From: Nanobdellati archaeon
Lineage (GTDB): Archaea > Nanobdellota > Nanobdellia > Woesearchaeales > JAADFO01
Direction: 5' to 3'
Assembly (NCBI GenBank): GCA_013152815.1
Contig: JAADFO010000048.1
Span: forward strand, 1 to 52,741
Length of the DNA: 52,741 nucleotides
The notes beneath the pieces were generated by a model. That model made no database searches, was not told the DNA's origin, and saw only the letters and a program-made list of their open reading frames with translations. Shown in pieces: positions 2,141 to 16,801 of this stretch (position 1 is its first letter; every line of letters starts with the position of its first letter). Position numbers and translations under genes: made by a program.

Positions 2141-2310
2141 TGGGATGATGAAGGAAGAGCATAATAACGTGATGAAGCGATCCGCCGATCCTGCTCAGGA
2201 AAGAAAGAGTGAGACTGAAAGAGAGAAAGAAGAAGAGAAAGAGAGGAAGACAGGACAGGGGGAAAACAGGACAACATTCCGACTTTTTTATCCTGCCACA
2301 GTGAGAAAAA

Positions 2311-2347: not shown

Positions 2348-2653
2348 ATGGGAACCATCCTCAGTTCTAAGACGAAAGAGGACGGAAGCGTCATCTTCGA
2401 AGTCGTCGTAGATTATGAAGAAGCGCTCCAGCTGCAGGGCCGTCTGAACAACGTCCATCTCTTCTCAGAGGATATCGCCTCCATCGAGACCAAGATAGCG
2501 CCCAGGGGCAAGAATGAAGCGACGACCTATTTTCTGATGCCGCGGGAATTACGGAAGAACCTCACACTGACCAAGAAAGCCCATTGCCAGAAGATCGAGA
2601 CCAAGACCAAGATAATCTTTCTCTATGTGATAGACAAATTAGGCCTTCGATAG
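2348..2653 (+). CDS. Small hypothetical protein with a possible AbrB/MazE-like swapped-hairpin motif
   Basis: 101 aa, globular composition. TKIAPRGKNEATTYFLMPRELR resembles the AbrB-type motif. Sits 4 nt upstream of the KaiC-like gene. Confidence 0.65.
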   Translation: MGTILSSKTKEDGSVIFEVVVDYEEALQLQGRLNNVHLFSEDIASIETKIAPRGKNEATTYFLMPRELRKNLTLTKKAHCQKIETKTKIIFLYVIDKLGLR

Positions 2654-2657
2654 GAAG

Positions 2658-3449
2658 ATGACGACCAGAAAGAGCAACAGGACGAAGAGGACCAGAAGGG
2701 CCGACAGAGGGAACAGCATGACAGCAACAGGCAGGAAGACCAGGACAAGGGACCACAGGACACCCATGGGCATCAGGGGCTTTGATGCGCTCGTCGACGG
2801 AGGCGTCCCTCAGGGAAAATGCATCCTCCTCAGCGGCACACCCGGCACCGGGAAGACCATCTTCTCCCTGGAGTACATCTATCAGGGAGCGGTACGGTTC
2901 AAAGAGAAAGGGCTTTTCGTCTCCTTTGAAGAACAGGCAGAGAATCTCAGGGCTCAGGCAGCAAAATTCGGATGGGACTATCCGTTGCTCGAAAAGCAGG
3001 GCATCGTCACCTTCCTCAACATCCCGGTGAGTGAGATCAAACAGAACACCGTCGATGAGATCGTCAACTTCATCAGGAAGAACAGGATCAGAAGACTGGT
3101 CATCGATTCGCTCTCGGCCCTCGCCATCAACTCACCAACGGCGCATGTGAAGGTCACCGATATCACCGCCTATAGCATCCAGCGTTTCATCTATTCTTTC
3201 GTCAACAGGCTCAAAAGCCTCCGGGAGGTAACATCCCTCCTCATCTCCCAGACGCAGGAAGGCCAGCTGTCCCGCGACTCGGTCTCTGAATTCGTCTGTG
3301 ACGGCATCATCACCATCAACTATGAGGCGCTTGGAGGAGAGTACTCACGCAGCCTGATCGTCCGCAAGATGCGAGAGGTCAACAACGATGAGGATGTGCA
3401 TCCGCTCGAGATATCCAAGAAAGGGATCATCATCCATTCGCTTTCCTGA
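2658..3449 (+). CDS. KaiC-like (RecA superfamily) single-domain ATPase
   Basis: Motifs: GIRGFDALVDGGVP, Walker A GTPGTGKT, catalytic SFEE, Walker B LVIDS, SEFVCDGII and RKMR finger. The N-terminal ~35 aa are Arg/Thr-rich, so the start may lie downstream. Confidence 0.92.
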   Translation: MTTRKSNRTKRTRRADRGNSMTATGRKTRTRDHRTPMGIRGFDALVDGGVPQGKCILLSGTPGTGKTIFSLEYIYQGAVRFKEKGLFVSFEEQAENLRAQAAKFGWDYPLLEKQGIVTFLNIPVSEIKQNTVDEIVNFIRKNRIRRLVIDSLSALAINSPTAHVKVTDITAYSIQRFIYSFVNRLKSLREVTSLLISQTQEGQLSRDSVSEFVCDGIITINYEALGGEYSRSLIVRKMREVNNDEDVHPLEISKKGIIIHSLS

Positions 3450-3602
3450 ACACGGCAAGCGGCGGAGGAATAAAGAACGGGCATTCGGTCTTTCTTTCCC
3501 CCGTTCATGCACACCATCCTCTCCCCATCACCTTTGGGTACGTCGGGGAAACCCCGTCTAACGTTTCCAGATATCAACAAAGCAACAGAAGAAGCGATAC
3601 CG

Positions 3603-4265
3603 ATGATAGCACGATGGACCAACAGCTTCGTCAGACTGATGGGAGGCCATGGCATCTTCCGCTTCGACAGGAACGGTGTGCTCCGGGTGGCAGGGGTGGA
3701 GGCCCTCATGCTGCCCATGACAAGCTTTGCCATGCAGCAGTTCCTGCTCAACAAGTATCTCGACAGGCACATCGTCCAGGACATCTTCTATCATACGGGC
3801 AAGATCCAAGGAAAGGTCGCCGTCCGCATCCTCAGGGACAAGTTCGGCATCAAGGACCCGAAAAGGATATTCTCCATGATCATGGAGCAGTACAAGATGG
3901 TGGGCATGGGACGGAACGAGATCCTGAAGTTGGACCGGAAGAACCATATCGTGCTCCTCAAGAAGGTCGTCGCACCCTATGAAGAGAAATATCTCAAGCT
4001 CTTCGGCACGCAGAAGGAACCTGTCAGCCAGGGACACCGGGGAGCCACGGCGGGCATCTTCGAGGAGATCTTCGGGGAAGAGATGGTCACCATCGAGAAG
4101 CAATGCAAGGTCCAGGGCAAGCAGTTCTGCCTCGAAGAGACATTTCCTACGCGCCTGATCAAGAAGAAGGACCTGAGTCCCATGGAGAAGCGACAGCTTC
4201 CTTCGCCCGTATCACGATACCCTGAGCTCAGACAGCTCGAACAGACCATGCATTACCTGAGATGA
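3603..4265 (+). CDS. V4R (4-vinyl reductase-like) small-molecule-binding domain protein
   Basis: GMGRNEI...PVSQGHRGATAGIFEEIFGEEMVTIEKQCKVQGKQFC is the V4R signature. Start is uncertain (3507 or 3603). Confidence 0.8.
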   Translation: MIARWTNSFVRLMGGHGIFRFDRNGVLRVAGVEALMLPMTSFAMQQFLLNKYLDRHIVQDIFYHTGKIQGKVAVRILRDKFGIKDPKRIFSMIMEQYKMVGMGRNEILKLDRKNHIVLLKKVVAPYEEKYLKLFGTQKEPVSQGHRGATAGIFEEIFGEEMVTIEKQCKVQGKQFCLEETFPTRLIKKKDLSPMEKRQLPSPVSRYPELRQLEQTMHYLR

Positions 4266-4361: not shown

Positions 4362-5768
4362 TCAGAGTGCCCGTCTCAGGAAGCGCGGAGGATTCTCCAG
4401 GTCGACGATCTCCAGATAGGCCTGCCGTTCTATGCCGTTGACCGAGACGGTCAGAGGAGTGTCCATGGGGACCCCGATCTTCTTGTAGAGGTCATACTCA
4501 TCGGCCTCAAGGATCTGGACCCAATGGGTGGCACCCTTCGCCCGCGAGAAGCGGAAGGCCTCGAAAAGGAGCTTGAGACCCACCCCTGCCCGGACATAGG
4601 GCATCCGGATCCATCTCCCTGGCTCGATGATCCTTGCGCCCTGCTGGCGATAGTGGTCAAGCGGATAGAATGCGTCGGCGGGCAGCTTGTCCCGGGGACT
4701 GTCCTCCACAAGACGCATCGTCCCCAGGAGCTTTCCATGATGGCTTGCGATGAGATGATAGGCGTGCTCGTCAAACGCATCGGCATCGGTGAGCGGATGC
4801 CTGTAGAAAGGAGGTGTGTGTCCCTTCCGTTCGTTGAGATAATGGTAGCGGAAACGATAGAGCGAAGGAAGCTCTTCGGGCAGCGCTTGCCGTATGACAA
4901 GGTCATCCATGGGAAGGCCGGCGTAGACGATGCCTTTCTTCACCGCCAGAAGGAAGGCCTGCTTCATATACACTTCCTTCCCGGGCAGGGTGTCTGCTGC
5001 CAGGACATCGCTGAATCCCACATACTCCAGGAGGATCCTCTTCATCCGCTCGGTGGAAAAATGGTTCTTGATGTTCGCATCCAGAAGCTGGTTGACCATG
5101 CTGACGATCTGCAGGTCCTGTTGCCTGTCCTGAAGACGGCCGGTCTGCAGCAGCTCGGCCAGAAGCCCGCTCGTCAGTATCCGCACGTCCTGGTCGGGTT
5201 TGGGCCCGGAGACGACGAGGATCCCGTCTTTCTTCAGAGCACGGTAAGCCTGGTCCAGGGCATGATAGGGATCGTCGAGAGCGTAGAGCACGTTGAGCAT
5301 GGCCGCTCCGTCATAGCGGTTGGGGGGCAAGGTGAAACAGGAAGCGTCCGCAAGATGCAGATCGACGAGATGCTCAAGCCCCTCCTGCTGCACCTTGAGC
5401 TCTGCCTTTTTGAGCATCTCCTCGTTGGAATCATAGCCGTCGACGTGGATGCCCTTCTTCGCGAGGAGGATGGTCTGGTTGCCGGTCCCGCATCCGATGT
5501 CGGCGACGGCGGAACAGCCTTGGAGGATGTCTGCCACCTCCTGCTGCAGACGCCGATACTGGGAGTTGGTCCCCACGACGGCATCATAGCTCTCGGCATA
5601 TCTCGTGAAGAGCGCGGAGAAGGTCACCTGGTCCGCAGGAAGATCGAGCAGTGCACCGAGTCTTGCAAGATCATCCTGACCGAGACGGTTCCGAAGAGAA
5701 TCATCAGGAACAGGAGGGGACTGTCCTTCCGAAGCAGAGGATATCGGGTCAGGTATACGAGAATCCAT
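4362..5768 (-). CDS. Class I SAM-dependent methyltransferase fused to a GNAT domain of LuxI/FeeM (N-acyl amino acid synthase) type
   Basis: N-terminal half: ADIGCGTG, GYDSNEEML, NVLYAL, ALKKDGILVV. C-terminal half: LYRFRY...DAFDEHAYHL...LLGTMRLV...IEPGRW...YKKIG. Confidence 0.8.
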   Translation of the reverse strand: MDSRIPDPISSASEGQSPPVPDDSLRNRLGQDDLARLGALLDLPADQVTFSALFTRYAESYDAVVGTNSQYRRLQQEVADILQGCSAVADIGCGTGNQTILLAKKGIHVDGYDSNEEMLKKAELKVQQEGLEHLVDLHLADASCFTLPPNRYDGAAMLNVLYALDDPYHALDQAYRALKKDGILVVSGPKPDQDVRILTSGLLAELLQTGRLQDRQQDLQIVSMVNQLLDANIKNHFSTERMKRILLEYVGFSDVLAADTLPGKEVYMKQAFLLAVKKGIVYAGLPMDDLVIRQALPEELPSLYRFRYHYLNERKGHTPPFYRHPLTDADAFDEHAYHLIASHHGKLLGTMRLVEDSPRDKLPADAFYPLDHYRQQGARIIEPGRWIRMPYVRAGVGLKLLFEAFRFSRAKGATHWVQILEADEYDLYKKIGVPMDTPLTVSVNGIERQAYLEIVDLENPPRFLRRAL

Positions 5769-5771
5769 GGA

Positions 5772-7403
5772 TCATGCACCTCGCCGGACAGGGAAAGAGG
5801 ATTCTTGATGATGACTTTCCGGGTAGTGGAACCAATAGGCTCCCTTGCGGTGTTCCTGGAGCTGCCCCTCAAGACGACGTGAGCCCACCAGCTGATTGGT
5901 CATCATGCCCGTGCTGTCCAGCTGGGGGATCATGACACGGGAGACGTCGATCCTTGCATGCAACTCCTCGAAGATCGAAGGCAGGGAGAAGGAAGGATCC
6001 ATATAATAGACCGGACCGAGCAAGGCATCTCGGACAGCTGGCCTGGATGCACGATGCCCATTGGACGGTCTTCCTGCCTCCTGCTGCCCATCAAGCCCGG
6101 CAGGATCAGCATAAACCGCATCATCAGCATGATAGAAACCAGGCGTCGGTTCTCCAGAGAGGACCTTCTCCAGATAGGCCCGCCCTAGTGCGGTCCCGGG
6201 CAGGACGGCGACGCCCAAAGAGACACCGACCACATGAGGATCGAGAGCCTGTATATCATCAAGGGAACGGAACATCTTCTCAGGGCTGTCTCCGGGAAAA
6301 CCGAAGAGAAGCTCATGGGCGACAGGGATTCCGTTGTCCTGTGCAAGCCGCGTCGCCTTCGCAATCTCCTCAAGGCCATACCATTTGCCCATCTTCCGGA
6401 GCATATTCCGGTCAGTATGGTCGACACCGAAATTGATCCCCGCCCCATTGGCCCGGGAGAGGAGACGCGCATATTCTTCGTCGAAGGGTGACGGCTGCGC
6501 ATAGAGCCAGAAACGCAACTGATTCGTCCCATACCCTCGCGAAGCTATGGCCCTCAGGACATCTTTGGAATGGGCGAAGGGAATGTTGAACTCACTGTCG
6601 GCCGAATGGATATCATGGACTCTCTGACCGATGAGCTGATCGAATTCAGAGAGCGTGTCCTCCAGGGAGACAAGGGCGTATCCATCCATCTTGGCCTCAG
6701 GTTCAATGCAGTAGGTTCTGCAGGGCATGGTACAGCCATGGGACGTCCGGATGGCACCGAGCCCGCCATGCTCATAGTACCATGCATTGTCCACCAGGGA
6801 ACGGTCGACCTTTGAAAGTATCCTTGTTGCACGTCCATCGATGAAGAGAGGGACCTCATCTGCCGACACCGATGCTCCATCATCGCCTGCAATGCCCATA
6901 GCAACAGGCTTTCCTGCCGATGAAGCCCTCACTGCGAATTGGCTTGCGAGGGACGCTCCCCTGGAAAGCCCGTCGGCAAGCTCCACGAGGACCTGGTCAC
7001 CCTGGCCCTGGACACCATAGCGAAGACCAAGATAGTGCAGCAGGGCTTCCGGCTGTGAGGAGAACCCTACTCCGCCCAGGATGATGCGCTCAGGGTCGAT
7101 GTGACCCTTGATCCGATCCACAAGACGATGATGTTCAGGCAGGAAAGAACCCTTCTCTGGCAGGTCGAAGAAGGAAGGGAAATAGAGATCATGGGTATTC
7201 CGAAGGGTGAGGGCGACCAGCTCAGGGCGTGACCTCTGAAAATAGCTGTCGATGGAAGCAGAAGGATCATCGGTCAAGGTGAGGTCGAGGATCTCGACAT
7301 CGTGGCCTTCCTGCCGTAGGGCCGAACCGAGAACGTCAAGCGCATAGGGCGCGATAGGGGGGACAAGTATCCTGTTGAGATTGACCAGGACCACATCGGT
7401 CAT
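5772..7403 (-). CDS. Cobalamin-binding radical SAM methyltransferase, TsrM (tryptophan 2-C-methyltransferase)-like
   Basis: PPIAPYALDVL, LRNTHD, GGVGFS, WYYEHGGLG, GCTMPCRTYCIEPEAK, DSEFN, INFGVDH and HELLFGFPG all match my recollection of the TsrM family. SD AGGTGAT precedes the ATG. Confidence 0.85.
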   Translation of the reverse strand: MTDVVLVNLNRILVPPIAPYALDVLGSALRQEGHDVEILDLTLTDDPSASIDSYFQRSRPELVALTLRNTHDLYFPSFFDLPEKGSFLPEHHRLVDRIKGHIDPERIILGGVGFSSQPEALLHYLGLRYGVQGQGDQVLVELADGLSRGASLASQFAVRASSAGKPVAMGIAGDDGASVSADEVPLFIDGRATRILSKVDRSLVDNAWYYEHGGLGAIRTSHGCTMPCRTYCIEPEAKMDGYALVSLEDTLSEFDQLIGQRVHDIHSADSEFNIPFAHSKDVLRAIASRGYGTNQLRFWLYAQPSPFDEEYARLLSRANGAGINFGVDHTDRNMLRKMGKWYGLEEIAKATRLAQDNGIPVAHELLFGFPGDSPEKMFRSLDDIQALDPHVVGVSLGVAVLPGTALGRAYLEKVLSGEPTPGFYHADDAVYADPAGLDGQQEAGRPSNGHRASRPAVRDALLGPVYYMDPSFSLPSIFEELHARIDVSRVMIPQLDSTGMMTNQLVGSRRLEGQLQEHRKGAYWFHYPESHHQESSFPVRRGA

Positions 7404-7500
7404 CCCGCATCACCTTGCCTCTTTTCTGAAGTGTCACCCATGCCAGGTCACCCATGCCGTCTTTCTTAATGCTCTTTTAATGCTCTTAGAAGTCCTGATT

Positions 7501-7516
7501 GTTTAATAAGCTTTTC
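7501..7516 (-). promoter_or_regulatory. BRE/TATA-like promoter for the TsrM-like operon
   Basis: The minus strand reads GAAAAGCTTATTAAAC about 100 nt upstream of start 7403, in an AT-rich intergenic region. Confidence 0.45.
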
Positions 7517-7851
7517 AATATATTTATCCATTTTATCATGAATCAGGACTGTATTCTATGATACAGGAAAAAGAATTAGAGAATAAGAGATGTTTAATAG
7601 AGAGTTTATCCAATAATGATAGCCACATGGCCTGTCGAAGACCAGAAAAGAGCAGGAAGCAGCAGTGACAGAAGAAGAGGACACAGAGGAGGAGAACATG
7701 CGATCTGCAGCCAGTGATGAAAAGTTATACCAAAACAGGCATAATTTATCCTGATTTCTACAATAACTCTTTATAGTCAGAGCTCCTCTTATCCTACAAG
7801 ACCAAGGCCGATGAGACCAACGATATTCATCTCATCATTCATACACCGGGG

Positions 7852-7879
7852 GTCCCTGCTCTTGGAAAAGAGCAGGGAC
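7852..7879. other. Perfect 12-bp hairpin with GGAA (GNRA) loop
   Basis: GTCCCTGCTCTT-GGAA-AAGAGCAGGGAC, followed by AACCTTTT. Function unknown. Confidence 0.6.
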
Positions 7880-8065
7880 AACCTTTTGGCCTGCGATTCT
7901 ACCCCACCACCCACTGGTCTTTATAAGCCGATACTTAGGTCAATACTGAACAGAATCCAGGGAAATGCTGATGAGCATCATTGACAGGGGCGTACGATAA
8001 GGCATCATAGGAAAGGTCGCTGCAGGAAGAGAAAGACAACAGAACACGGAAGAAAAAGGGATAGC

Positions 8066-8653
8066 ATGGACAAACTCAACGAGATAACGAACGACATGAG
8101 CGTATTGGTGGTCATGAACGAGCATGCCTATGACACAAAGACGCCGGCACTCCTGCAACAGCTGCATGAAAGCAGACGCAATTTCTGCTATGTGTGCCTG
8201 GCACGGCCCTACAGCGAGATAAAAGAAAGGTTCCAGAGCAGTTTCATACCGACGACGCAGTTCCATTTCATCGATACGTTGAGCAGCCATTATGAGAAAC
8301 AGGAAGAGCAAGAGGACTGCACCTTCCTTCCTGACCCCATAAAACTGAGCGTCCTTTCAGAGACCATCATGCAGAAGATGAAAGAGAAGCGATGTTCAGG
8401 GGTCGTCTTCGACACCTTCAGCGCACTGCTCAGCTATAAGGCTGATTTTGAGCTTCTCCACTTCATCAACGACCTTTCCATGAAGACGAAAGACAAGAAC
8501 ATGAGCAAAATCCTCTTCTTCGAGCGGAAGATCCGTCCCTATTACGAGAACTCGGAAAGGCTGGCCAATGATCTTGCCTTGTTCCTGGACAGGACCATCT
8601 GGCTCAACGGAAAGGAAACCCACCAAACCCACCCTGTGCAGGATCAGCGATGA
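8066..8653 (+). CDS. Inactivated KaiC/RecA-fold protein (no Walker A)
   Basis: CYVCLARPYSEI...FHFIDTLS...VVFDTFSALL...LALFLDRTI follows the RecA-fold strand order but has no GxxGxGKT. Paralogous to 22830..23357. Confidence 0.7.
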   Translation: MDKLNEITNDMSVLVVMNEHAYDTKTPALLQQLHESRRNFCYVCLARPYSEIKERFQSSFIPTTQFHFIDTLSSHYEKQEEQEDCTFLPDPIKLSVLSETIMQKMKEKRCSGVVFDTFSALLSYKADFELLHFINDLSMKTKDKNMSKILFFERKIRPYYENSERLANDLALFLDRTIWLNGKETHQTHPVQDQR

Positions 8654-8843
8654 CCCCGCTTCCTGGAAGGGCCCATCTTGAATATCTTGAGCACATAATC
8701 AGACGCATGAGAAAAAGGCGAAGAGAAGAACATAACACATAAATACGATGAAGGATATGATATGCTCATTACGCTCCTCGGACAAGAGATCCACACGGGG
8801 AGAGATAGAGACAGAGAGAAAATAAGTGAGGCGTAGGAAGACC

Positions 8844-9212
8844 ATGAAGACCATACTTGCAGTGGATGATGAAGAAAGCCTCAGACAGCTTATCGAAGCC
8901 ATCTTCGAACAGGAAGGATACCATGTCCTGACCGCATCGTCAGGACAGGAATGCCTTGACCTCCTCCAGAAGGAAAAGCCCGACCTTATCCTCATGGACA
9001 TGATGATGCCCGGGATGAGCGGAAGGGAGACCATAGAAAACATCAGGAAGAATCCCAAGACCAAGGACCAGAAGATCATCTTCCTCACCGTAGCAAGGTT
9101 CTCTGAGACAGGCAAGGATGTGCTTGGCAAGCTCAAGGTGCTGGATTACATCACCAAGCCGTTCGAGAATGCGGACCTTATCAAGACCGTCAAGAAGCAC
9201 CTGGGCAGATAA
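8844..9212 (+). CDS. Stand-alone response regulator receiver (CheY-like)
   Basis: Motifs: ILAVDDE, phosphoacceptor LILMDMMMPGMSG, FLT and YITKPF. No output domain. Confidence 0.95.
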   Translation: MKTILAVDDEESLRQLIEAIFEQEGYHVLTASSGQECLDLLQKEKPDLILMDMMMPGMSGRETIENIRKNPKTKDQKIIFLTVARFSETGKDVLGKLKVLDYITKPFENADLIKTVKKHLGR

Positions 9213-9300
9213 GGGGACGGATCCTTCGGATCGCGTAATTCTTAATTCTCTATCGGAGATCCGATAACCCAGATCTTTCCCGGCAACGTAATGTCCAGAA

Positions 9301-12300
9301 TCAACCTTCTGATCCTTTCCCGCTCTGTTTCTCTTTTCTTGTCCGGGACACTCTGCTGCTCTTCCTTGCCGCGCCCCTGCGGGAACCTGATCTTCGGAGA
9401 TCGTCTCGCGGGGCATCAGCTTTTCCAGCATCAACTCTTCCCGGCATGATGTTGATGGTCTTCTTCATGGTCTTCGGAGCTTTCAGAGGAAGGATGAACG
9501 AGAATGTCGAGCCGTTTCCCGGGCTGCTCTCTGCCCATATCTTCCCGCCCATGGCCTCGATGAACCCTCTGCTGATGGAGAGCCCGAGGCCTGACCCGCC
9601 TATCTGTCTGGTCAGAGGAGAATCGACCTGATAGAAACGCTCAAAGATCTTCTCGAGACTCTCCGGGGGGATGCCCTTGCCGGTATCAGAGACACTCACC
9701 TTGATGTCCTTCTGTCTCCTCTCGACAGTGAGGGTGATGGTCCCCTTGTCAGTATAGTGCACTGCATTGTTGACCAGGTTACGGATGACCTGGATGAGCT
9801 TGTCCTTGTCGATAAAGACCGAGGGAAGCGAGCGGGGGATATGAGTCTGGAAGCGAAGGCCCTTCGCTTTCACCTGGAGCGTTACCTGAGGCAAGCAGGC
9901 ACCGAAGACCTCACCAAGATTCACTTTCTCCCAGGCAAGCTTGAGGGTCCCGATATCCATCCGGGAAAGCTCGAGGATGTTGCTGATCAGCTCCCCGAGC
10001 CGGGTGGTATCGTTATAGATTATGGTCAGAAACTTCTGACGCTTCTTCTTGTCGTTCGCCACCGCCGGATTCTTCAGGAGATCGGTGAATCCCTTGATGC
10101 TCGTCAGCGGAGTCTTCAATTCATGGGCCGCGATGGAGATGAACTGGTCCTTCTGGAAATCCAGCTTCTCCAGTTCGTTCATGCTTTCCTTCAGCTTTCT
10201 TTGGGCGATGACGAGCCGGTTCTTGGCCTCGTCAGAATCCTCAAGTATGTTGAGCATGGCCGCTTTGTTCCTCTCGAGCTCGTCCACCTTAGCCCTGAGC
10301 TCTTTCGTCTTCCTGCGGACGATCTTCTCGAGATCCTTGCTATGGCCTGCAAGCTTCTTGTTGGCCTCGTTTAATTCTTCTGTACGGTGCTTCACGGTAA
10401 GCTCAAGAGTCGTATTCATCTTTGCAAGCTCTTTTGTCTGCCGTTGGACTTCCATGCGAAGATTCTTCGTGAGGATGATAAAGGAAAGGATCCCAAGAAG
10501 CACGACCATCACGACGATGGTGATTGCAGAACGCCAGATCCGGGAAAGAGATGCTGAGACACCTGCATAGATGGTGTCGAGGGGCTCGACGATGACAAGG
10601 GTCCATGTATCTTCCCCAACCTTGAAGGACTCGTAGACCCCGAGTTTCTTCGCATCAGGAGCGTCTCCAGACGAGACAATGAACGATTCAGAACCCCGGA
10701 CACCCAGGAAGAAGGAGCCCGATGGAGGAACTCCCCCCTGCTTCTCTGTCGTCAAAACACCGGACAAGATCCCTGCCAGCCCCGAATCCTCTGAACCGCT
10801 ACCATGGAACGTCTTGTTATCTATCAGCAGATGCACATCAAGACCGGTCTCTGCTCCTATCGACATGATATGACGGTCGAGAATAATCTGCAGGGGGATG
10901 TTCATCCTCAGCAGACCCTGTTGGGTGTTGTTCCTTTCGATGGGAACGATGACAGAGAATACCGAATCGTTGTACGCTGTCCGGAAAAGAGATGATATGA
11001 CCGGTTCGTCCTTTTCCAGGGCATCTTTCACTCCTGGTTTGTTCGTATAGTTCTTTTCCTTTCCTTCATAGAATCTATTGAACGGCACCCGCATCAGGAC
11101 CATGCCGTTCTTGTCCATCAGATAGGCACTCTCTATGTTTCCCGAAAGACGTGCATAGAGATGAGAGAGGACAAGAAACGAAGCCCTCTTTTCTCCTGCA
11201 TCCCATGCACCCACACCTCCTGCACCCAATAGCTGCGGGTCTTTGCTTGTAATGTAAGCATCATTGAGAATGGTGGAGAACTCTGAGGTTATTTCATTGG
11301 CTTTGATGTCCGCAAGCAGGGAAAGGCGGGCTTTTGTCTGCGAAAGGGTCTCGGTTTTGTAACTGATGGCTGACTTGTCAGCATTGAACAAGAAGGTCGC
11401 GATGATGATGAGGAGGACCATGCCCAGGATGACCATGATGAAATTTGCCTTGTAGCTCAGGTAACCCTGCCGGAAAAGGGCAAATCCCACCAACAGTGCC
11501 ATGAGGACAGGAAAAATGAGCGGGATGAGCGGATTGCGCAGACCGAACAGGCTTTCAGAGAGCGCATGAGGAATGAGGAACGCAAGGGAAAGAAGAAACC
11601 CATAGAAGAAATATTTCATCCGTTTATCCTTGCGTATGAGATATTCAAGGAAGAGTACGGTGAAAGAGACGACATAGAGGAGGATGAGGAGCAGGATTAA
11701 AAGGTCAAAATAAGCCCCCCGGACCAGACCAACAGTACCGTAGGCAGCCAGGAGGTCTGGCTGCAAGACCGCGCCTTTCACGACCTGGTCGCTGAAGAGG
11801 GTCCAGCTGATCATCATGATGGAAAGCAGATGCATGGTCCCCAGGACAACCCGATGAAGATGATATCTCGCGACACTGAACATGGTCAACAGATAATAGA
11901 AAGAGAACATGTACGCCAGGACAAAGATCGTGCGCGCCAGATAGGTGACCAAAGAAAGATCATGGACATGCAACCGGAAGGTATAGGTCATCAGCAGCAG
12001 CAACCCAAAGACCAGCATAAGCCGATAGGAGATGGTGACGCGTTTGTCTGATGAATGCCGGTTGATGGACCAGAACAGGAAGAAATAGATCAAGAAGCCG
12101 AGCAAGAAGACAGAGAGATACGTATAATTAAGCGACGAGAAAAGAGAGGGGATCATGACGTTGTCATCTTCGAAAGCATATTCATCCAGATAGGTGGTGG
12201 CAGCGACAGTAAGACCCACGCCGTCTGCGGTCCTTCGGCGAACCGGAGTGATATACATGTACTTTTTCCTCAGGGAACCATCAGGATCTTTCCAGTCATA

Positions 12301-12747
12301 CAGCCCCTCTGCGGTACGCCCCCCCTCGGTCTTGACCATGATGCCCCAAAAGCTCGGCAGTTTCCCGGCCAGGGTGTGGAGGTCCATATCGACGATCTTC
12401 GGATCCTTGTGAAAACGGGCAATGAGCGTATCATAGTCTGTCACCGCCGTGTATCCTGTCTTGCCCACCCTCTGGACAGCCAGGGTCTGGAAGTAGGCAT
12501 CCTGCTGGAGATCCTGCAGGGTCATGTCGGGATGGAACAGGAGATAGCTCCCTATCTGCTTCGCAACATCCAGGGCCGTCTGTTTAATCGCCGTCTTTCC
12601 ACGCGAGAAGGCCAGAGAGTTCCCGGAAGCATCCTGAACAGACTGAGCGATGACCGAAGGAGCAATGAGCAGGGAACCCGGCAGGATGACAAGCAAGGAC
12701 AATAAAACAAGCCTTCCGGGCCATCCCCTTGACTGACCAGAGATCAT
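9301..12747 (-). CDS. Membrane sensor histidine kinase: signal peptide, Cache-like, 7TM block, TM, dCache-like, TM, coiled coil, HisKA, HATPase_c
   Basis: H-box FISIAAHELKTPLT, N-box NLVNNAVHY, DTGKGI, FERFYQ and GSGLGL. Nine hydrophobic helices follow the signal peptide. Cache-like motifs: VGKTGY...YDWKDPDG and AYLMDKNG...PVISSLF. Confidence 0.93.
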   Translation of the reverse strand: MISGQSRGWPGRLVLLSLLVILPGSLLIAPSVIAQSVQDASGNSLAFSRGKTAIKQTALDVAKQIGSYLLFHPDMTLQDLQQDAYFQTLAVQRVGKTGYTAVTDYDTLIARFHKDPKIVDMDLHTLAGKLPSFWGIMVKTEGGRTAEGLYDWKDPDGSLRKKYMYITPVRRRTADGVGLTVAATTYLDEYAFEDDNVMIPSLFSSLNYTYLSVFLLGFLIYFFLFWSINRHSSDKRVTISYRLMLVFGLLLLMTYTFRLHVHDLSLVTYLARTIFVLAYMFSFYYLLTMFSVARYHLHRVVLGTMHLLSIMMISWTLFSDQVVKGAVLQPDLLAAYGTVGLVRGAYFDLLILLLILLYVVSFTVLFLEYLIRKDKRMKYFFYGFLLSLAFLIPHALSESLFGLRNPLIPLIFPVLMALLVGFALFRQGYLSYKANFIMVILGMVLLIIIATFLFNADKSAISYKTETLSQTKARLSLLADIKANEITSEFSTILNDAYITSKDPQLLGAGGVGAWDAGEKRASFLVLSHLYARLSGNIESAYLMDKNGMVLMRVPFNRFYEGKEKNYTNKPGVKDALEKDEPVISSLFRTAYNDSVFSVIVPIERNNTQQGLLRMNIPLQIILDRHIMSIGAETGLDVHLLIDNKTFHGSGSEDSGLAGILSGVLTTEKQGGVPPSGSFFLGVRGSESFIVSSGDAPDAKKLGVYESFKVGEDTWTLVIVEPLDTIYAGVSASLSRIWRSAITIVVMVVLLGILSFIILTKNLRMEVQRQTKELAKMNTTLELTVKHRTEELNEANKKLAGHSKDLEKIVRRKTKELRAKVDELERNKAAMLNILEDSDEAKNRLVIAQRKLKESMNELEKLDFQKDQFISIAAHELKTPLTSIKGFTDLLKNPAVANDKKKRQKFLTIIYNDTTRLGELISNILELSRMDIGTLKLAWEKVNLGEVFGACLPQVTLQVKAKGLRFQTHIPRSLPSVFIDKDKLIQVIRNLVNNAVHYTDKGTITLTVERRQKDIKVSVSDTGKGIPPESLEKIFERFYQVDSPLTRQIGGSGLGLSISRGFIEAMGGKIWAESSPGNGSTFSFILPLKAPKTMKKTINIMPGRVDAGKADAPRDDLRRSGSRRGAARKSSRVSRTRKEKQSGKGSEG

Positions 12748-12848
12748 CAGTTCACCATCACCTTCAGTTCACCATCACCTTCAGTTCACCATCACCTTCA
12801 GTTCACCATCACCTTCAGTTCACCATCACCTTCAGTTCACCATCACTT
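12747..12848 (-). repeat. Tandem repeat, 6 x 17 bp (minus-strand unit AGGTGATGGTGAACTGA)
   Basis: Plus-strand unit TCAGTTCACCATCACCT starts at 12747, 12764, 12781, 12798 and 12815 (perfect) and at 12832 (one mismatch). It spans the whole gap between the PAS and kinase genes. Confidence 0.97.
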
Positions 12849-15263
12849 GCTGCCCTGTTTCGCTTCCAGCTGTCGTATCCTCTTCTTGAGCTCCACCATC
12901 CGTAGTTCCCTGCCGACGGTAAATTTCTGGAAGCGTTCCAGGTCATCCACTTTACGCTGCAATTCGCTGTTCATCTTTTCACGCTCATGTTCTGCTGCCC
13001 GTTCTTTTGAGATATCCCGGATGGTTGCCTGAAGAGCGAATCGCTTATTCTTGCTGAATCGGGAAAGGAGGATTGTTGCGGGAAAGGTGGTTCCGTCTTG
13101 CCGTTGATGCACCCAATCAAAATAGGCATGCCCTTCCTTAAGCGCCATGGAAATCATCTTTTTTGCCTTCATCCTGGACAAGGTCCCGTCGGGTTGCTCA
13201 GGGGGAGAAAGATCCCACGGTGTCTTGGTGGTGAACGCTTCTTCACTCTTGCAACCGAAAAGGCTCAGAGTCGCCTGATTGCCCTCGATGAATCGCCAAC
13301 TCGGAGGAGCCAGGACCATCAACGCATCAACGGAAGAATCAAAGAGGGTCTTGAACTTGTTCTCACTCTCCCGAAGGGCAGTCTCTGCACGTTTTCGGTC
13401 AGTCACATCGATTACCGTCCCCAATACGCGACGCTTGTGCCCTTTCGCATCATAGTCCAACTCTGCGTGGGCATGAAGCCAGAGCTCCTTGCCATCACGT
13501 CGCCGGATACGATGGTCCAGGTCAAGAGCAGCGGTTCCCCGGAAGGCCATACGGAATCCCTTCTTGATCATGTCCCGATCACCAGGATGCACATACTTCA
13601 TCAACATGTCAAAAGTGACCTCATCGGTTCCGGGTTTGAGTCCATAGAGTTCGATGACCTCTTCAGAGAGATAGATCTTTCCTGTCTTGAGATCCCAATC
13701 GAGGAAACCCATCTTCGATACACGTTGTGCCTTGAGCAGACGACGCTGGAACTCCTTCATCTTCTCTTCTGCATCTCGTCTCAGGGTGATGTCCCTGCCC
13801 TCAGCAAGGACCATCTTGATCTTTCCCTGTTCATCATTGATGATGTTATTATACCAAGAGATGACTTTCTCTTTTCCGTCCTTGGTTCTTATGACGTTCT
13901 CGTGATGGAACAGAGGCTTTCCTTTAAGCAGACCGTTCAAGACGCTCCTGACCGGTTTTTGCTTTCTTGCCGGGATGAAGAGAGAGAACCAGTCCTTTCC
14001 CATGACCTCGCGCTTCTTGTAGCCCGTTATCCATTCAGCGCCTGCATTGAAGAGGATGATGCGTCCTTTCTTGTCCAGACCCACAATCAGACCGGGAGCG
14101 GTCTCGATGACCCGCTCAGAGAACTCCTTTTCCTTCTTTAGCTCCTGCTGATGCGCTTTCTCTTTAGTGATGTCCCGTTGGACAGCCATGAAACCCATGA
14201 TCTTTTGCTCATTGTCCAAGATCGGACTGAGCACCGCCTGCATGGTGACGAGCTTACCATCCTTCTTACGGTTGATGAATTCCTGCAGGATCGTCTCCTT
14301 CCGAAGGAGCCGTCTCCAAAGGGCGCGGTAGAAAGGCCTCTTGAAATGGTCTGATTTCAGGATGCGGGGAGTCTTTCCTGTAACGTCTTTCCAGGCATAG
14401 CCATAGAGCCTTGTGAAGGCAGGATTGATATGCTGGATGATGCCCTCCCTGTTGGTGGTGAAGATGACATCATTGGAGGTCTCAAAGCCTTTCATGAGCC
14501 AGCGCATCTGCTGCTCAGCCTCGTGCTGTTGGGTGATGTCACGCAACGATGTGTGAAGGCCGACTATCTTCCCCTGCTTTCTCAACGGAGTGCTCCACCA
14601 TTCGACCATGACAGGCCCACGGGGAGTGAACACTCTAGTTATCCCTCTGTTCTGCTTCCCTCTTTTCAGGTCGAGAAGGCTTTTGAGTATGGCTGGCCAT
14701 GCGCTCTTCGGCACAAATTCCAGCATAGAATGACCGATCAGGTCTTTTGGCCTGAACCCGTATCGTAATATGGTCTGATTGACCGAGAAGATCTTTCCCT
14801 TCAGGGATACGAGCATCTGGATATCCGGAGAATTATCGAATAGAGCACGAAATTCCTGTTCACGCTCGCTGAGCATCGTCTCCTGCTTCACCCTGCGGGT
14901 GATATCCCGAAAGACGGTCTGGTTATAGAGTATCTTTCCTTTGGACTTCCTGACATGGACTACGCCTTCCACATGAAGACGTTTTCCACGCTTAGTGATG
15001 AAATCAGTTCTCACGAGGGGCATCTTCTCTCCTGCGTTTATTCTCCGGAGGACAGATCTGCAGCGGGACCTAAAATCAGGATGGATGATATCGAAAAGAG
15101 TCATCTTCTCAGCTTCTTTTGAGGTATATCCCAGAATGCGACGCCAGGCCCTGTTGGTGTAGATCAGTTTTCCTGAAGGGGAGACACACTGCACCATATC
15201 AGAGATGTTCTCAGCGAGGTCCCTGTAGAAAGAGTCATCAAAGCGGTATCTTGAACCGGCCAT
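12843..15263 (-). CDS. Soluble multi-PAS sensor (6 PAS/PAC domains) with a C-terminal coiled coil and no catalytic output domain
   Basis: Six PAS units end in RDIT, RDIT, RDIT, RDIT, IDVT and RDIS. C-terminus is LERFQKFTVGRELRMVELKKRI. ATG 15263 has a purine-rich SD; alternative start is GTG 15287. Confidence 0.92.
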   Translation of the reverse strand: MAGSRYRFDDSFYRDLAENISDMVQCVSPSGKLIYTNRAWRRILGYTSKEAEKMTLFDIIHPDFRSRCRSVLRRINAGEKMPLVRTDFITKRGKRLHVEGVVHVRKSKGKILYNQTVFRDITRRVKQETMLSEREQEFRALFDNSPDIQMLVSLKGKIFSVNQTILRYGFRPKDLIGHSMLEFVPKSAWPAILKSLLDLKRGKQNRGITRVFTPRGPVMVEWWSTPLRKQGKIVGLHTSLRDITQQHEAEQQMRWLMKGFETSNDVIFTTNREGIIQHINPAFTRLYGYAWKDVTGKTPRILKSDHFKRPFYRALWRRLLRKETILQEFINRKKDGKLVTMQAVLSPILDNEQKIMGFMAVQRDITKEKAHQQELKKEKEFSERVIETAPGLIVGLDKKGRIILFNAGAEWITGYKKREVMGKDWFSLFIPARKQKPVRSVLNGLLKGKPLFHHENVIRTKDGKEKVISWYNNIINDEQGKIKMVLAEGRDITLRRDAEEKMKEFQRRLLKAQRVSKMGFLDWDLKTGKIYLSEEVIELYGLKPGTDEVTFDMLMKYVHPGDRDMIKKGFRMAFRGTAALDLDHRIRRRDGKELWLHAHAELDYDAKGHKRRVLGTVIDVTDRKRAETALRESENKFKTLFDSSVDALMVLAPPSWRFIEGNQATLSLFGCKSEEAFTTKTPWDLSPPEQPDGTLSRMKAKKMISMALKEGHAYFDWVHQRQDGTTFPATILLSRFSKNKRFALQATIRDISKERAAEHEREKMNSELQRKVDDLERFQKFTVGRELRMVELKKRIRQLEAKQGSK

Positions 15264-15323
15264 TCTCCCCTCTTTTTTTCTTGTCACTTACTTCCTCGTA
15301 CAAAGCTCATAGAAAGCAGTAGG

Positions 15324-15345
15324 TTAAAAACTATATATTCCTTTC
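15324..15345. promoter_or_regulatory. TATA-like element in the divergent promoter region between the PAS gene and the second KaiC-like gene
   Basis: TAAAAACTATATATTCCTTTCT can be read as BRE+TATA on either strand. Confidence 0.4.
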
Positions 15346-15508
15346 TGCAAGAGAGGGATAAACACAGCCGCAACAGACATCACTCTCCTCCAATACTCAC
15401 AAAAGAATAAATAGCCGGCCAAGAACAGGAGACTAGCAACATGAGATAGTGCTGCATACCTGCCGGATACCCAAGGGGGACCGACAAGCAGTTCAGACAA
15501 GGCATACT

Positions 15509-16801
15509 ATGGACGCATCGAAAGAACATCCGTTCATCCTGCATGACGGAACACCGGCCGCCAGTTTAGTGGAACTGCTCCATGCTGTCGAAGAAGCGCC
15601 AGAAGAGATCTTTCTTTATCATGTCACGTCGGAAAGGAATGATTTTGAGAACTGGATAACTGCCTGTCTCCACGAGCCTGAGCTAGCGCAGAAAATCTCA
15701 GGACAGCCGAAAAGGAAGAAGTTTCTCAGAATCCTGAAGAAAGCCGTCAAGAGACAAGAGAAGGATCTCAAGAAGCGCATACCTGAAGCTGGAAGTTCAT
15801 CTCCAGAGAACAGAGAACCTGAAAGAGACAACCACCTCAAACAGACGAACGTGCCGAAAGAGACAGAAGAACCATCTTTCTTTTCTGCGCCGGTTCCGGA
15901 AGAGATGCCGACCCTGCAAGAACTCGAAGAGACCCTCTCCCCTGATGATAACGAAGATAACAACACCAAAAGCCAGAAGCGACCGAACCAGCCCATCGCC
16001 AGGGAAGAGATCCTGCGCACAGAGTTCCAGGACGATGAGTCGGCCGGAGCGGAAGATGCCGAAGAAGAAGTGGCAAGGATAACCATCGGCGTCCCGGGAT
16101 TTGACGGTCTCGTCGGCAAAGGCGTCCCCAAAGGAAGCGCCATCCTCCTCACCGGCGGACCCGGGACCGGTAAGACGACCTTCGGCCTGCAGGCGCTGCG
16201 ATACGGCATCGAACAGGGAGAGAACTGTCTCTATCTGACCTTTGAGGAGAGTGAGAAGAACCTCATCCGTCACCTGAAGGATTTTGGATGGGACCCACGT
16301 CAGGCCATCGCAGAGAGACGCCTTATCATCAAGAAAGTCAACCCCATGCATCTCAGCAGATCGGTCGAGGCCCTGCTTGCACGTGCAAGCGGAGAGCTCC
16401 TCATAGACATCGATGAGGTGGAAGGGATCATCCCCTCAGGATTTCAGCCCGACCGGGTCATCCTCGACTCGCTCTCGGCAGTGGCAGCTGCTTTTGCCGG
16501 GACGAAAGAAGGATATCGCATCTATGTCGAGCAGATCTTCAACCTGTTCGAGCGCAGGGGGACCACATCGTTCCTCATCAGCGAACGGGAACAGACCACC
16601 GACAAGTACGCCAGGGCGGGAATCGAAGAGTTCCTGGCAGATGCCGTATTCATCTTCTACAACATCAGGAGGGAGAATGAGCGCGTCTCTGCCCTGGAGA
16701 TCCTCAAGATCAGGGGGACTCCGTTCCATAAGAAGATCGTCCCCTTCAAGATCACCGAAGGGAAGGGCATCGTGGTCTATCCTCAGGAAGCTGTCTTCTG
16801 A
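15509..16801 (+). CDS. KaiC-like ATPase with N-terminal DUF5752-like domain and acidic disordered linker
   Basis: N-terminus FILHDG...LVEL...FLYHVTSERNDFENWI...ELAQKI. ATPase motifs: Walker A GGPGTGKT, LTFEE, VILDS, GIEEFLADAV, LKIRG. Alternative start GTG 15449. Confidence 0.9.
   Translation: MDASKEHPFILHDGTPAASLVELLHAVEEAPEEIFLYHVTSERNDFENWITACLHEPELAQKISGQPKRKKFLRILKKAVKRQEKDLKKRIPEAGSSSPENREPERDNHLKQTNVPKETEEPSFFSAPVPEEMPTLQELEETLSPDDNEDNNTKSQKRPNQPIAREEILRTEFQDDESAGAEDAEEEVARITIGVPGFDGLVGKGVPKGSAILLTGGPGTGKTTFGLQALRYGIEQGENCLYLTFEESEKNLIRHLKDFGWDPRQAIAERRLIIKKVNPMHLSRSVEALLARASGELLIDIDEVEGIIPSGFQPDRVILDSLSAVAAAFAGTKEGYRIYVEQIFNLFERRGTTSFLISEREQTTDKYARAGIEEFLADAVFIFYNIRRENERVSALEILKIRGTPFHKKIVPFKITEGKGIVVYPQEAVF

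Follow-up and report, generated by a model that had tools for sequence, protein, structure and literature searches.

A TsrM-like methylase and a methyltransferase-acyltransferase fusion facing a V4R/KaiC operon: a candidate chemical signalling cassette with exchangeable enzymes in Woesearchaeales

The closest described counterparts of the locus reported here are the LuxI/LuxR quorum-sensing pairs, the tryptophan methylase TsrM, the FeeM-type N-acyltransferases, the sensor domains of MopR-type regulators, and the KaiC-like response protein CirA of Haloferax. This study analyzed a 52,741-nucleotide contig (JAADFO010000048.1, hereafter the window) of a Nanobdellati archaeon of the order Woesearchaeales, whose genome assembly (1.49 Mb) is 90.8% complete, and focused on a two-gene enzyme arm and the three-gene sensor arm that it faces. 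Because this layout and an upstream motif recur across the order with swappable enzymes, an undescribed chemical signalling circuit is likely. A circuit that makes and senses a tryptophan- or indole-based compound is the best explanation of the locus, and we regard the chances of its being correct as about even. Judged from sequence, the enzyme pair likely makes a methylated, acylated tryptophan-type small molecule. The components are as follows, in window coordinates.

5772 to 7403, minus strand: B12-dependent radical-SAM-family methylase of the TsrM sister clade, 543 amino acids (aa) (domains, tree, residues)
4362 to 5768, minus strand: class I S-adenosylmethionine (SAM) methyltransferase fused to a FeeM/LuxI-fold GCN5-related N-acetyltransferase (GNAT) domain, 468 aa (methyltransferase core at residues 88-186; GNAT at about 286-468, window 4362-4913)
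3507 to 4265, plus strand: stand-alone V4R/XylR_N-like protein with a MopR/PoxR-type fold, a predicted ligand binder, 252 aa (domains, structure model)
2658 to 3449, plus strand: single-domain KaiC-like ATPase with intact Walker A/B-type motifs (homologous part from about residue 34)
2348 to 2653, plus strand: 101-aa Nanobdellota protein, weakly AbrB/MazE/SpoVT-like, a candidate DNA-binding output (weak fold and profile matches)
2288 to 2293, plus strand: TTATCC/GGATAA site, 60 nucleotides (nt) before the sensor arm, a candidate operator half-site (motif scan)
7524 to 7529, minus strand: GGATAA site, about 120 nt before the enzyme arm, a candidate operator half-site (motif scan)

The 543-aa protein shares with TsrM (TIGR04428; K. 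setae structures 6WTE/6WTF) the B12-binding and radical-SAM domains, the lower-axial Arg, the Glu of the DSE motif, the Cys-loop Glu, the ribose Asp, and a Lys. It differs in scoring below the family cut-off, in belonging to a separate clade of 470-540-aa proteins, in its changed cap-loop Tyr and beta-6 Arg, and in its CX3CX3C motif; moreover, the window locus shows no thiopeptide context, the partners being an acyltransferase and a sensor. FeeM (PF21926, 2G0B) and the TyzA and OxzA enzymes, which use acyl-coenzyme A (acyl-CoA), have a core of Arg, Asp, Arg, Glu, and Arg in common with the window GNAT, and GNAT relatives in the order have ThiF or redox enzymes as tailoring partners, an arrangement shared with oxazolone pathways. 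Unlike those enzymes, the window GNAT is archaeal, fused to a methyltransferase, and linked to a V4R/KaiC operon, and no acyl carrier protein (ACP) was found in the genome.

As in LuxI/LuxR systems, including those of the CoA-using BjaI (5W8C) and the 4-coumaroyl-homoserine lactone synthase 6WN0, a LuxI-fold synthase lies beside a ligand-binding protein, here tail-to-tail and with a shared upstream motif. However, the sensor is a V4R protein with a separate KaiC and a small AbrB-like protein, no LuxR was present among the scanned neighbours, the LuxI aromatic pair is missing, and the enzyme arm of some related cassettes contains no LuxI-fold protein. As read here, the cassette works like a LuxI/LuxR pair but is a member of neither LuxI/LuxR nor TsrM proper. 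The window V4R protein has the same sensor fold as MopR, PoxR, and DmpR (5KBE, 5FRU, 6IY8), with template-modelling (TM) scores of 0.76-0.80 over the target, but it stands alone with no AAA+ or helix-turn-helix domain and does not keep the Trp134 position. In the available text on Haloferax volcanii, the density-signal response needs a KaiC-like protein (PMC12642392); the likeness to CirA of the disk-forming-signal response is that of a single-domain KaiC-like ATPase in a small-molecule response. According to the same text, the synthase and the receptor for the Haloferax signal are not linked to a single cassette, whereas here the synthase and the candidate receptor are neighbours.

Recurrence of the layout was examined in 401 genomes of the order. 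A PF21926 search returned 27 matches, 18 of them over the cut-off; flanks were read for all 18 and for five of the nine weaker loci, and the other four weaker loci had no V4R within 1.5 kb on each side. A V4R gene lay within two genes of FeeM in 17 of the 18 genomes over the cut-off, the exception being G228 (15 of 16 when the unpublished G128 and G216 are left out); the V4R call in G048, G165, and G360 came from an in-house profile (E 8e-12 to 5e-19). The partners in these FeeM cassettes vary and comprise an unrelated B12 radical-SAM family, a methyltransferase (separate or fused), an acyl-CoA dehydrogenase, a haem-oxygenase-like enzyme, and ThiF. A V4R profile built from 14 loci matched 50 genomes, 13 of them by construction. 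Among 32 further V4R loci, four held a shorter paralogue in another setting and six ended near the gene; in 20 of the 22 informative loci a small-molecule enzyme stood within two genes of V4R, and in G131 and G380 an unannotated protein did. Eight of the further loci carried a FeeM/LuxI-type GNAT. The remaining enzyme arms were a PaaK-like ligase with a radical-SAM protein, an aromatic amino-acid lyase, LPG_synthase_C with an NAD_binding_4 reductase, and a fusion of aminotransferase III with aldehyde dehydrogenase (ALDH); one more arm type was a methyltransferase at a contig end. Most enzyme arms face the V4R gene, and five are partly co-oriented (G112, G125, G147, G197, and G288). These counts include the unpublished genomes G128, G190, G216, and G320, and related genomes among them are not independent.

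Three side observations were made on these loci. The alternative arms beside the V4R/KaiC unit are located at L215:18-1610, L216-L218, L229-L232, and L237. In three loci the enzyme slot holds proteins with no Pfam match or with a receiver domain alone (L213:4678-5616 in G380, L225:988-2472 in G131, and L232:5971-7206 in G275), which are candidate new synthases. The shorter V4R paralogue (about 165 aa) precedes KaiC in some of the cassettes, and in other genomes it occurs on its own (L211:2993-3475, L222:2987-3484, L224:3019-3519, L238, L240, and L241).

We then compared the regions upstream of both arms by using the hexamer GGATAA, which was chosen by eye from the same sequences, with approximate gene starts and with three sensor-arm regions sharing their intergenic gap with an enzyme arm. 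On either strand, it preceded 21 of 25 enzyme arms (52 sites versus 4.6 +/- 2.3 in 300 dinucleotide shuffles, about 11-fold) and 16 of 20 sensor arms (29 sites versus 4.1 +/- 1.8, about 7-fold), compared with 20 of 131 non-cassette upstream regions of the same loci and 65 of 599 in the source genome. An inverted pair with a 14-16-nt spacer was present in 11 of the 25 enzyme arms. In the window, further sites at 7606, 7746, and 7789 lie in the 662-nt gap that holds the 7524 site, giving four sites against 0.47 expected, a number reached in two of 2000 shuffles. These results make GGATAA a candidate operator common to both arms. A sigma-70 promoter and terminator scan, a type of scan ill suited to archaea, gave results near chance.

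A shared operator suits induction as much as autoinduction. The V4R protein might sense a host or environmental compound and switch on enzymes that methylate and acylate that same compound, as MopR and DmpR do with phenol genes, for detoxification, for disarming a host signal, or for making a lipid-like product. V4R folds with a known bound ligand serve to sense substrates, as far as the accessible text of PMC10715001 describes them, and the arms with LPG_synthase_C plus reductase or with acyl-CoA dehydrogenase look like lipid enzymes. Nevertheless, the arms are synthetic (acyltransferases, methylases, ThiF, and ligases) and differ greatly from locus to locus beside an unchanging sensor arm, a pattern that better fits diversification of a signal, and no ring-cleavage or uptake genes recur beside the arms in the loci read. 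We consider such inducible modification unlikely, though it keeps an appreciable share of the probability.

The enzyme pair of the window was examined for its arrangement and synteny. The first-pass annotation had described two co-oriented genes 3 nt apart, and both are present as intact open reading frames (ORFs) on the same strand with that gap. They lie tail-to-tail with the plus-strand operon of 101-aa protein, KaiC, and V4R, with 96 nt between the end of the V4R gene and the stop of the fusion gene. In L091, a Nanoarchaeota metagenome-assembled genome, both enzyme genes are adjacent in the same order (identity 49% for the radical-SAM protein and 42% for the fusion), and the sensor arm is conserved as well (101-aa protein 63%, KaiC 60%, and V4R 45%). 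The metagenome contigs L011 and L012 repeat the pair and end inside the second gene. The same adjacency and order in L091, L011, and L012 indicate that the pairing is not by chance, and because L011 and L012 are close to the lineage of L091, the exact pair is known from two independent lineages. A radical-SAM orthologue was not found in 40 relatives (best identity 25%), and a clade profile run against the 401 genomes yielded one further member, in G269, with no fusion beside it. The GC content at third codon positions (GC3) of the enzyme genes is 0.61 and 0.71, compared with 0.68 +/- 0.10 for the genome (716 long ORFs). Mis-binning or recent transfer was considered and is not supported, given this GC3 fit and the synteny with a named archaeal contig; the proposed DPANN origin of the DNA fits.

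Domain searches of the 543-aa protein matched B12-binding (E 3e-11) and Radical_SAM (E 2e-14). Among NCBIfam models, TIGR04428 (tryptophan 2-C-methyltransferase) scored highest, at 303 bits and thus under the cut-off of 500 (318 bits for the L091 orthologue); its closest PDB sequence is 6WTE (E 1e-78), and it is 35% identical to S. laurentii TsrM. A homologue search matched 230 proteins, and among the 120 matches listed at least 30 homologues (35-49% identity, 462-506 aa) outscored all named TsrM proteins. In a quick tree of 93 rows, with SH-aLRT support alone and a midpoint root, the window protein, 30 homologues, and six locus proteins formed one clade of 37 rows (99%) that is sister to the TsrM clade (100%), the joint branch having 99% support. 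The radical-SAM enzymes of other cassettes branched outside these two clades, as did a third TsrM-like family of proteins about 460 aa long. A protein of another genome of the order was grouped with a named Woesearchaeota protein, which fits the lineage. We assign the protein to the TsrM sister clade and not to TsrM itself. The earlier naming of a TsrM-like Trp methylase holds insofar as the protein groups with TsrM and not with lipid- or RNA-modifying B12 radical-SAM families; because it lies outside the TsrM family by score, tree, and cap-loop residues, free L-Trp is no more than a candidate substrate.

The TsrM residues R69, E236, D271-S272-E273, D335, K346, and L379 (6WTE numbering) are retained as R68, E234, D269-S270-E271, D328, K340, and L366. 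The Arg under the cobalt (equivalent to R69) and the cluster-ligating Glu (equivalent to E273) are present in 30 of 30 aligned clade rows; the available portions of two reviews link both to the non-radical methyl transfer of TsrM (PMC8992657, PMC9204698), and the SAM-site list of E236, D335, K346, and L379 is that given in the portion seen of PMC9204698.

Clade members elsewhere have varied neighbours. The bacterial members L013, L014, and L094, which represent one lineage, adjoin nonribosomal peptide synthetase (NRPS) genes, and the member in L092 has an ACP, a Trp-dioxygenase-like gene (50 bits, cut-off 35), and a methyltransferase about 3-6 kb away. The L092 region (6592-12833, Pyrinomonadaceae), which also encodes a luciferase-like monooxygenase, is in its own right a candidate Trp-derived metabolite cluster. 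A member in L093 (unpublished genome G044) adjoins an O-methyltransferase, from which no conclusion is drawn, and the flanks of the L015 member held no neighbours of the NRPS or Trp-metabolism type. In two Woesearchaeota-type genomes, clade members stand alone beside a TrmB regulator (L157:5718-8803 in G269, and L124:1950-4308, the latter also beside a major facilitator superfamily transporter); elsewhere in G269, on another contig, stands a complete cassette whose radical-SAM enzyme is a different one. The third TsrM-like family is large and occurs in anaerobes (Dehalococcoidia, Verrucomicrobiota, and others); no gene neighbour is shared by its loci, the largest neighbour cluster covering 20 of 120 loci (L016-L135).

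The fusion protein matches Methyltransf_11 at residues 90-186 and FeeM PF21926 at 304-431, the latter with 52 bits against a cut-off of 27, and Atlas structure rows show a LuxI/FeeM fold for the GNAT at TM of about 0.8. The autoinducer synthase family PF00765 was not among its Pfam matches at E<=0.01. The core residues R307, D333, R352, E382, and R385 are kept, and the Phe and Trp of BjaI correspond to Leu311 and His317, so that the conserved LuxI aromatic pair (as given in the part consulted of PMC7567580) is not kept. A profile of 18 GNAT domains from cassettes found its closest solved relatives in the autoinducer synthases 5W8C, 3P2F, and 6WN0 and in FeeM 2G0B at E 1e-13 to 2e-9, and it also matched a plain acetyltransferase at 5e-12; because all three kinds match, the profile alone cannot distinguish acyl-homoserine lactone (AHL) synthesis from amino-acid acylation. 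The two replaced aromatic residues together with the missing PF00765 match favour an amino-acid acceptor, and the acyltransferase is classed by these features as FeeM-type and not AHL-type. An AHL or long-chain acyl-ACP product is unlikely, because the domain is FeeM-type, the LuxI aromatic pair is missing, and no ACP partner was found. Of the LuxI/FeeM assignment made at first pass, the FeeM side was thus upheld and the AHL side was not. FeeM and BjaI are the nearest structures to TyzA, an enzyme that uses C3-C16 acyl-CoAs to acylate amino acids, Trp among them, according to the available part of its description (PMC10404671).

The methyltransferase half scored under all specific NCBIfam cut-offs (best 72 bits versus 180), and its proposed target, a carboxyl or an amide, is a guess. 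A profile of six fusions retrieved many full-length methyltransferase-GNAT relatives, one of them named Nanoarchaeota. As a separate observation, domains of the TIR, caspase-like, DUF4062, and B12 radical-SAM types also occur as fusion partners of this methyltransferase family (P0269, P0308, P0296, P0322, and P0200), hinting at use in further signalling or conflict systems.

GNATs and class I methyltransferases are frequently protein-directed. The enzymes could modify a protein instead of a small molecule, namely the sensor, the KaiC, or the neighbouring giant surface proteins, and large Ig-repeat genes do flank the block. The GNAT, however, falls in the LuxI/FeeM small-molecule branch, and the alternative arms (aromatic amino-acid lyase, PaaK-like ligase, and aminotransferase-ALDH fusion) are all small-molecule enzymes; protein modification appears highly improbable.

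The sensor arm was examined by structure and profile comparison. The V4R model has a pLDDT of 81, with the first 39 residues at low confidence, and its top matches among known folds were MopR, PoxR, and DmpR (Foldseek E 1e-11 to 1e-10), the TM values given above being those for MopR and PoxR. The protein is, on this model, a predicted small-molecule sensor. V4R has been proposed as a small-molecule binder in other settings in the portions seen of PMC5847659 and PMC12826048, and Trp134, with His106, is described as the phenol anchor in PMC10715001. By alignment register, the Trp134 position appears to be Lys in the window protein, and the His106 position could not be placed; because the Trp134 anchor is not kept, the ligand is probably not a simple phenol. 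The KaiC-like ATPase keeps its Walker-type motifs. A complex prediction for two V4R copies with KaiC scored 0.00 in two runs for which controls were not folded, and it speaks neither for nor against binding. For the 101-aa protein, nine of 11 VIA rows were AbrB, SpoVT, MazE, VapB antitoxins or similar small DNA-binding proteins, one homologue matches PF04014 at 27 bits, three of four organism-named homologues come from Ca. Woesearchaeota, and its Atlas clusters belong for the most part to Nanobdellota. A long branch of their own (100/100) unites the V4R proteins of the two cassettes with a TsrM-type enzyme, whereas the KaiCs of these two cassettes join in only 8% of bootstrap trees.

The facing V4R/KaiC/AbrB-like operon and the shared upstream motif add support to the earlier proposal of a signal synthase. 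The chemistry, sensing, and relay that we infer from the domains, the layout, the recurrence with exchangeable enzymes, and the GGATAA motif would run as follows. The TsrM-like enzyme would methylate the indole C2 of tryptophan or a modified tryptophan by the polar methylcobalamin route of TsrM; the FeeM-type domain would N-acylate the amino acid from an acyl-CoA, acetyl-CoA being the one donor that the source genome visibly makes; and the fused methyltransferase would cap the carboxyl or amide. The MopR-fold V4R protein would bind the diffusible product and act, by way of the KaiC ATPase, on both the AbrB-like protein and the GGATAA sites, so that a feedback loop like that of LuxI/LuxR would be closed. 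Tryptophan and cobalamin would be scavenged. That the exact product is a neutral, capped N-acyl-2-methyltryptophan derivative is a tentative proposal, more doubtful than not. It is possible, if still doubtful, that Woesearchaeales hold a whole family of complete autoinducer circuits with a non-LuxR receptor (V4R, KaiC, AbrB-like protein, and GGATAA) and a plug-in synthase arm, which here would make a cobalamin-made 2-methylindole acyl-amide from scavenged Trp and B12. Were this true, a signal built from scavenged Trp and B12 would report both the density of the archaeon and the presence of its host, and the plug-in arm would diversify the chemical language.

The supply of cofactor and precursors was surveyed in the source genome. 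Cobalamin use had been called unexpected in this lineage, a claim that did not stand: a B12-binding domain occurs in 119 of 151 genomes of the order (the unpublished G119, G128, and G139 included), some with more than 20, so B12 use is not unusual here. These domains are expanded in many genomes, with up to 27 matches, mostly in 450-550-aa frames and often clustered. A class II (B12) ribonucleotide reductase was considered as a second B12 user and rejected, the enzyme being class I with an adjacent beta subunit. The source genome encodes MetK, SufB, the pyruvate dehydrogenase complex, and the acetyl-CoA synthetase AcsA; single queries of it found no ADP-forming acyl-CoA synthetase, acyl-CoA dehydrogenase, or PaaK-like ligase. 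Consistent with the earlier remark on missing thiopeptide genes, the two sets of window ORFs scanned (16 and six), the right half of the window being one giant ORF, contained no YcaO or dehydratase family, and YcaO was not found in the genome; no search was made for a short precursor peptide. A second, highly divergent MetK-like protein is encoded at L246:128-1336 (contig C10 of the source genome), with 85 bits against the TIGR01034 cut-off of 309.

Several observations weigh against the tryptophan-based circuit. Of the cap-loop residues, which the review prints as 257/259 and which we take as 527/529 by 6WTE numbering, Asn527 is kept as N503, but Tyr529 is replaced by Leu or Ile in 30 of 30 clade rows, and the beta-6 Arg412 is absent in all 30; with both changed, the substrate may not be free Trp. 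The stand-alone clade members of G269 and L124 have neither a GNAT beside them nor the GGATAA motif, and the window itself carries half-sites alone and no inverted pair. An aromatic residue four positions past the first Arg, kept by most cassette GNATs, is missing here. The AbrB-like assignment of the 101-aa protein is weak, with Z values of just 3.0-4.2. General co-evolution of V4R with enzyme type was not borne out, since enzyme type is not clustered on the tree of 24 V4R rows (29 of 200 shuffles as low), and the TsrM-type V4R pairing is known from two genomes. In the 90.8% complete genome, BtuF-type and CbiQ-type B12 uptake genes, Trp synthase alpha, and ACP (PF00550) were not found. The window copy of the methylase, finally, has its Cys motif at 224-232 as CX3CX3C, where the other 29 rows have the canonical CX3CX2C, and two insertions private to it among the aligned clade rows.

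The clade-wide cap-loop and beta-6 changes bear on whether the same circuit runs on other chemistry, such as methylation of another electron-rich ring or of a carrier-bound or acylated intermediate, or a GNAT that makes an acyl-homoserine lactone with SAM. An unrelated B12 radical-SAM enzyme occupies the same slot in other cassettes, and the GNAT profile scores AHL synthases equal to FeeM. Nonetheless, no sampled protein group is a nearer sister to TsrM, the residues for polar methyl transfer are kept, this type of transfer needs a nucleophilic ring such as indole, and Leu311/His317 with no PF00765 match speak against AHL. We hold such other chemistry to be distinctly unlikely. The unusual Cys spacing and the insertions, together with the longest end branch of its sub-group (0.62), could instead mark the window copy as decaying or inactive cargo, with working versions in other genomes; the protein is also the sole B12-binding domain found in the source genome, where no transporter was found, and the cassette was not found in three same-family genomes searched. 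Against decay, none of the five frames is broken, the catalytic residues and the motif sites are retained, and GC3 matches the genome; by alignment AprD4 also has the CX3CX3C spacing, and it works with it according to the available text of PMC13707489. Decay is very unlikely in our judgement, and the tryptophan- or indole-based circuit is the reading that we retain.

In the literature searched on V4R, KaiC, archaeal and DPANN quorum sensing, and TsrM homologues, with subscription papers mostly outside the search, no description of the cassette was found, and the searchable papers yielded no archaeal signal with both its synthase and its receptor defined at a single locus. The 2017 treatment of KaiC hubs by Makarova reportedly may already mention KaiC-V4R links. 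The main text of a 2026 Nanobdellota preprint makes no mention of V4R, KaiC, cobalamin, or quorum. The accessible part of a quorum-sensing survey of the candidate phyla radiation (CPR) and DPANN gives LuxI homologues for CPR only (PMC7567580), and labindoles are the 2-methylindoles so far described outside thiopeptides in the portion seen of PMC6017429. The cassette names enzymes, a candidate receptor, and a candidate operator, and because E. coli can express all of these parts, direct tests of chemical communication become feasible for DPANN symbionts that have not been cultured. The locus further offers a candidate 2-methylindole route outside thiopeptides and asks which substrate is used by an uncharacterised clade sister to TsrM, itself the model of a B12 radical-SAM enzyme with non-radical chemistry. 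Stand-alone V4R proteins would gain ligands from it, and KaiC-like hubs an input.

Two further features lie beyond the enzyme arm.

8066 to 8653, plus strand: DUF835/inactive-KaiC-like protein, divergent from the enzyme arm and syntenic in L091 (weak Pfam matches, below cut-off)
8826 to 16801, strand unassigned: linked signalling block of a receiver protein, a Cache histidine kinase, a multi-PAS protein, and a second KaiC (Pfam domains)

The L091 neighbourhood likewise has DUF835-like, kinase, PAS, and second KaiC genes, and homologues of the signalling block flank the cassette in L091 and G086; the block is outside the minimal cassette. From 27981 to 52739 on the plus strand, the window is a single open frame of more than 8,250 codons that runs to the contig end and carries DUF2341 and Ig-like repeats, a predicted giant surface protein, a relative of which also flanks the cassette in L091.

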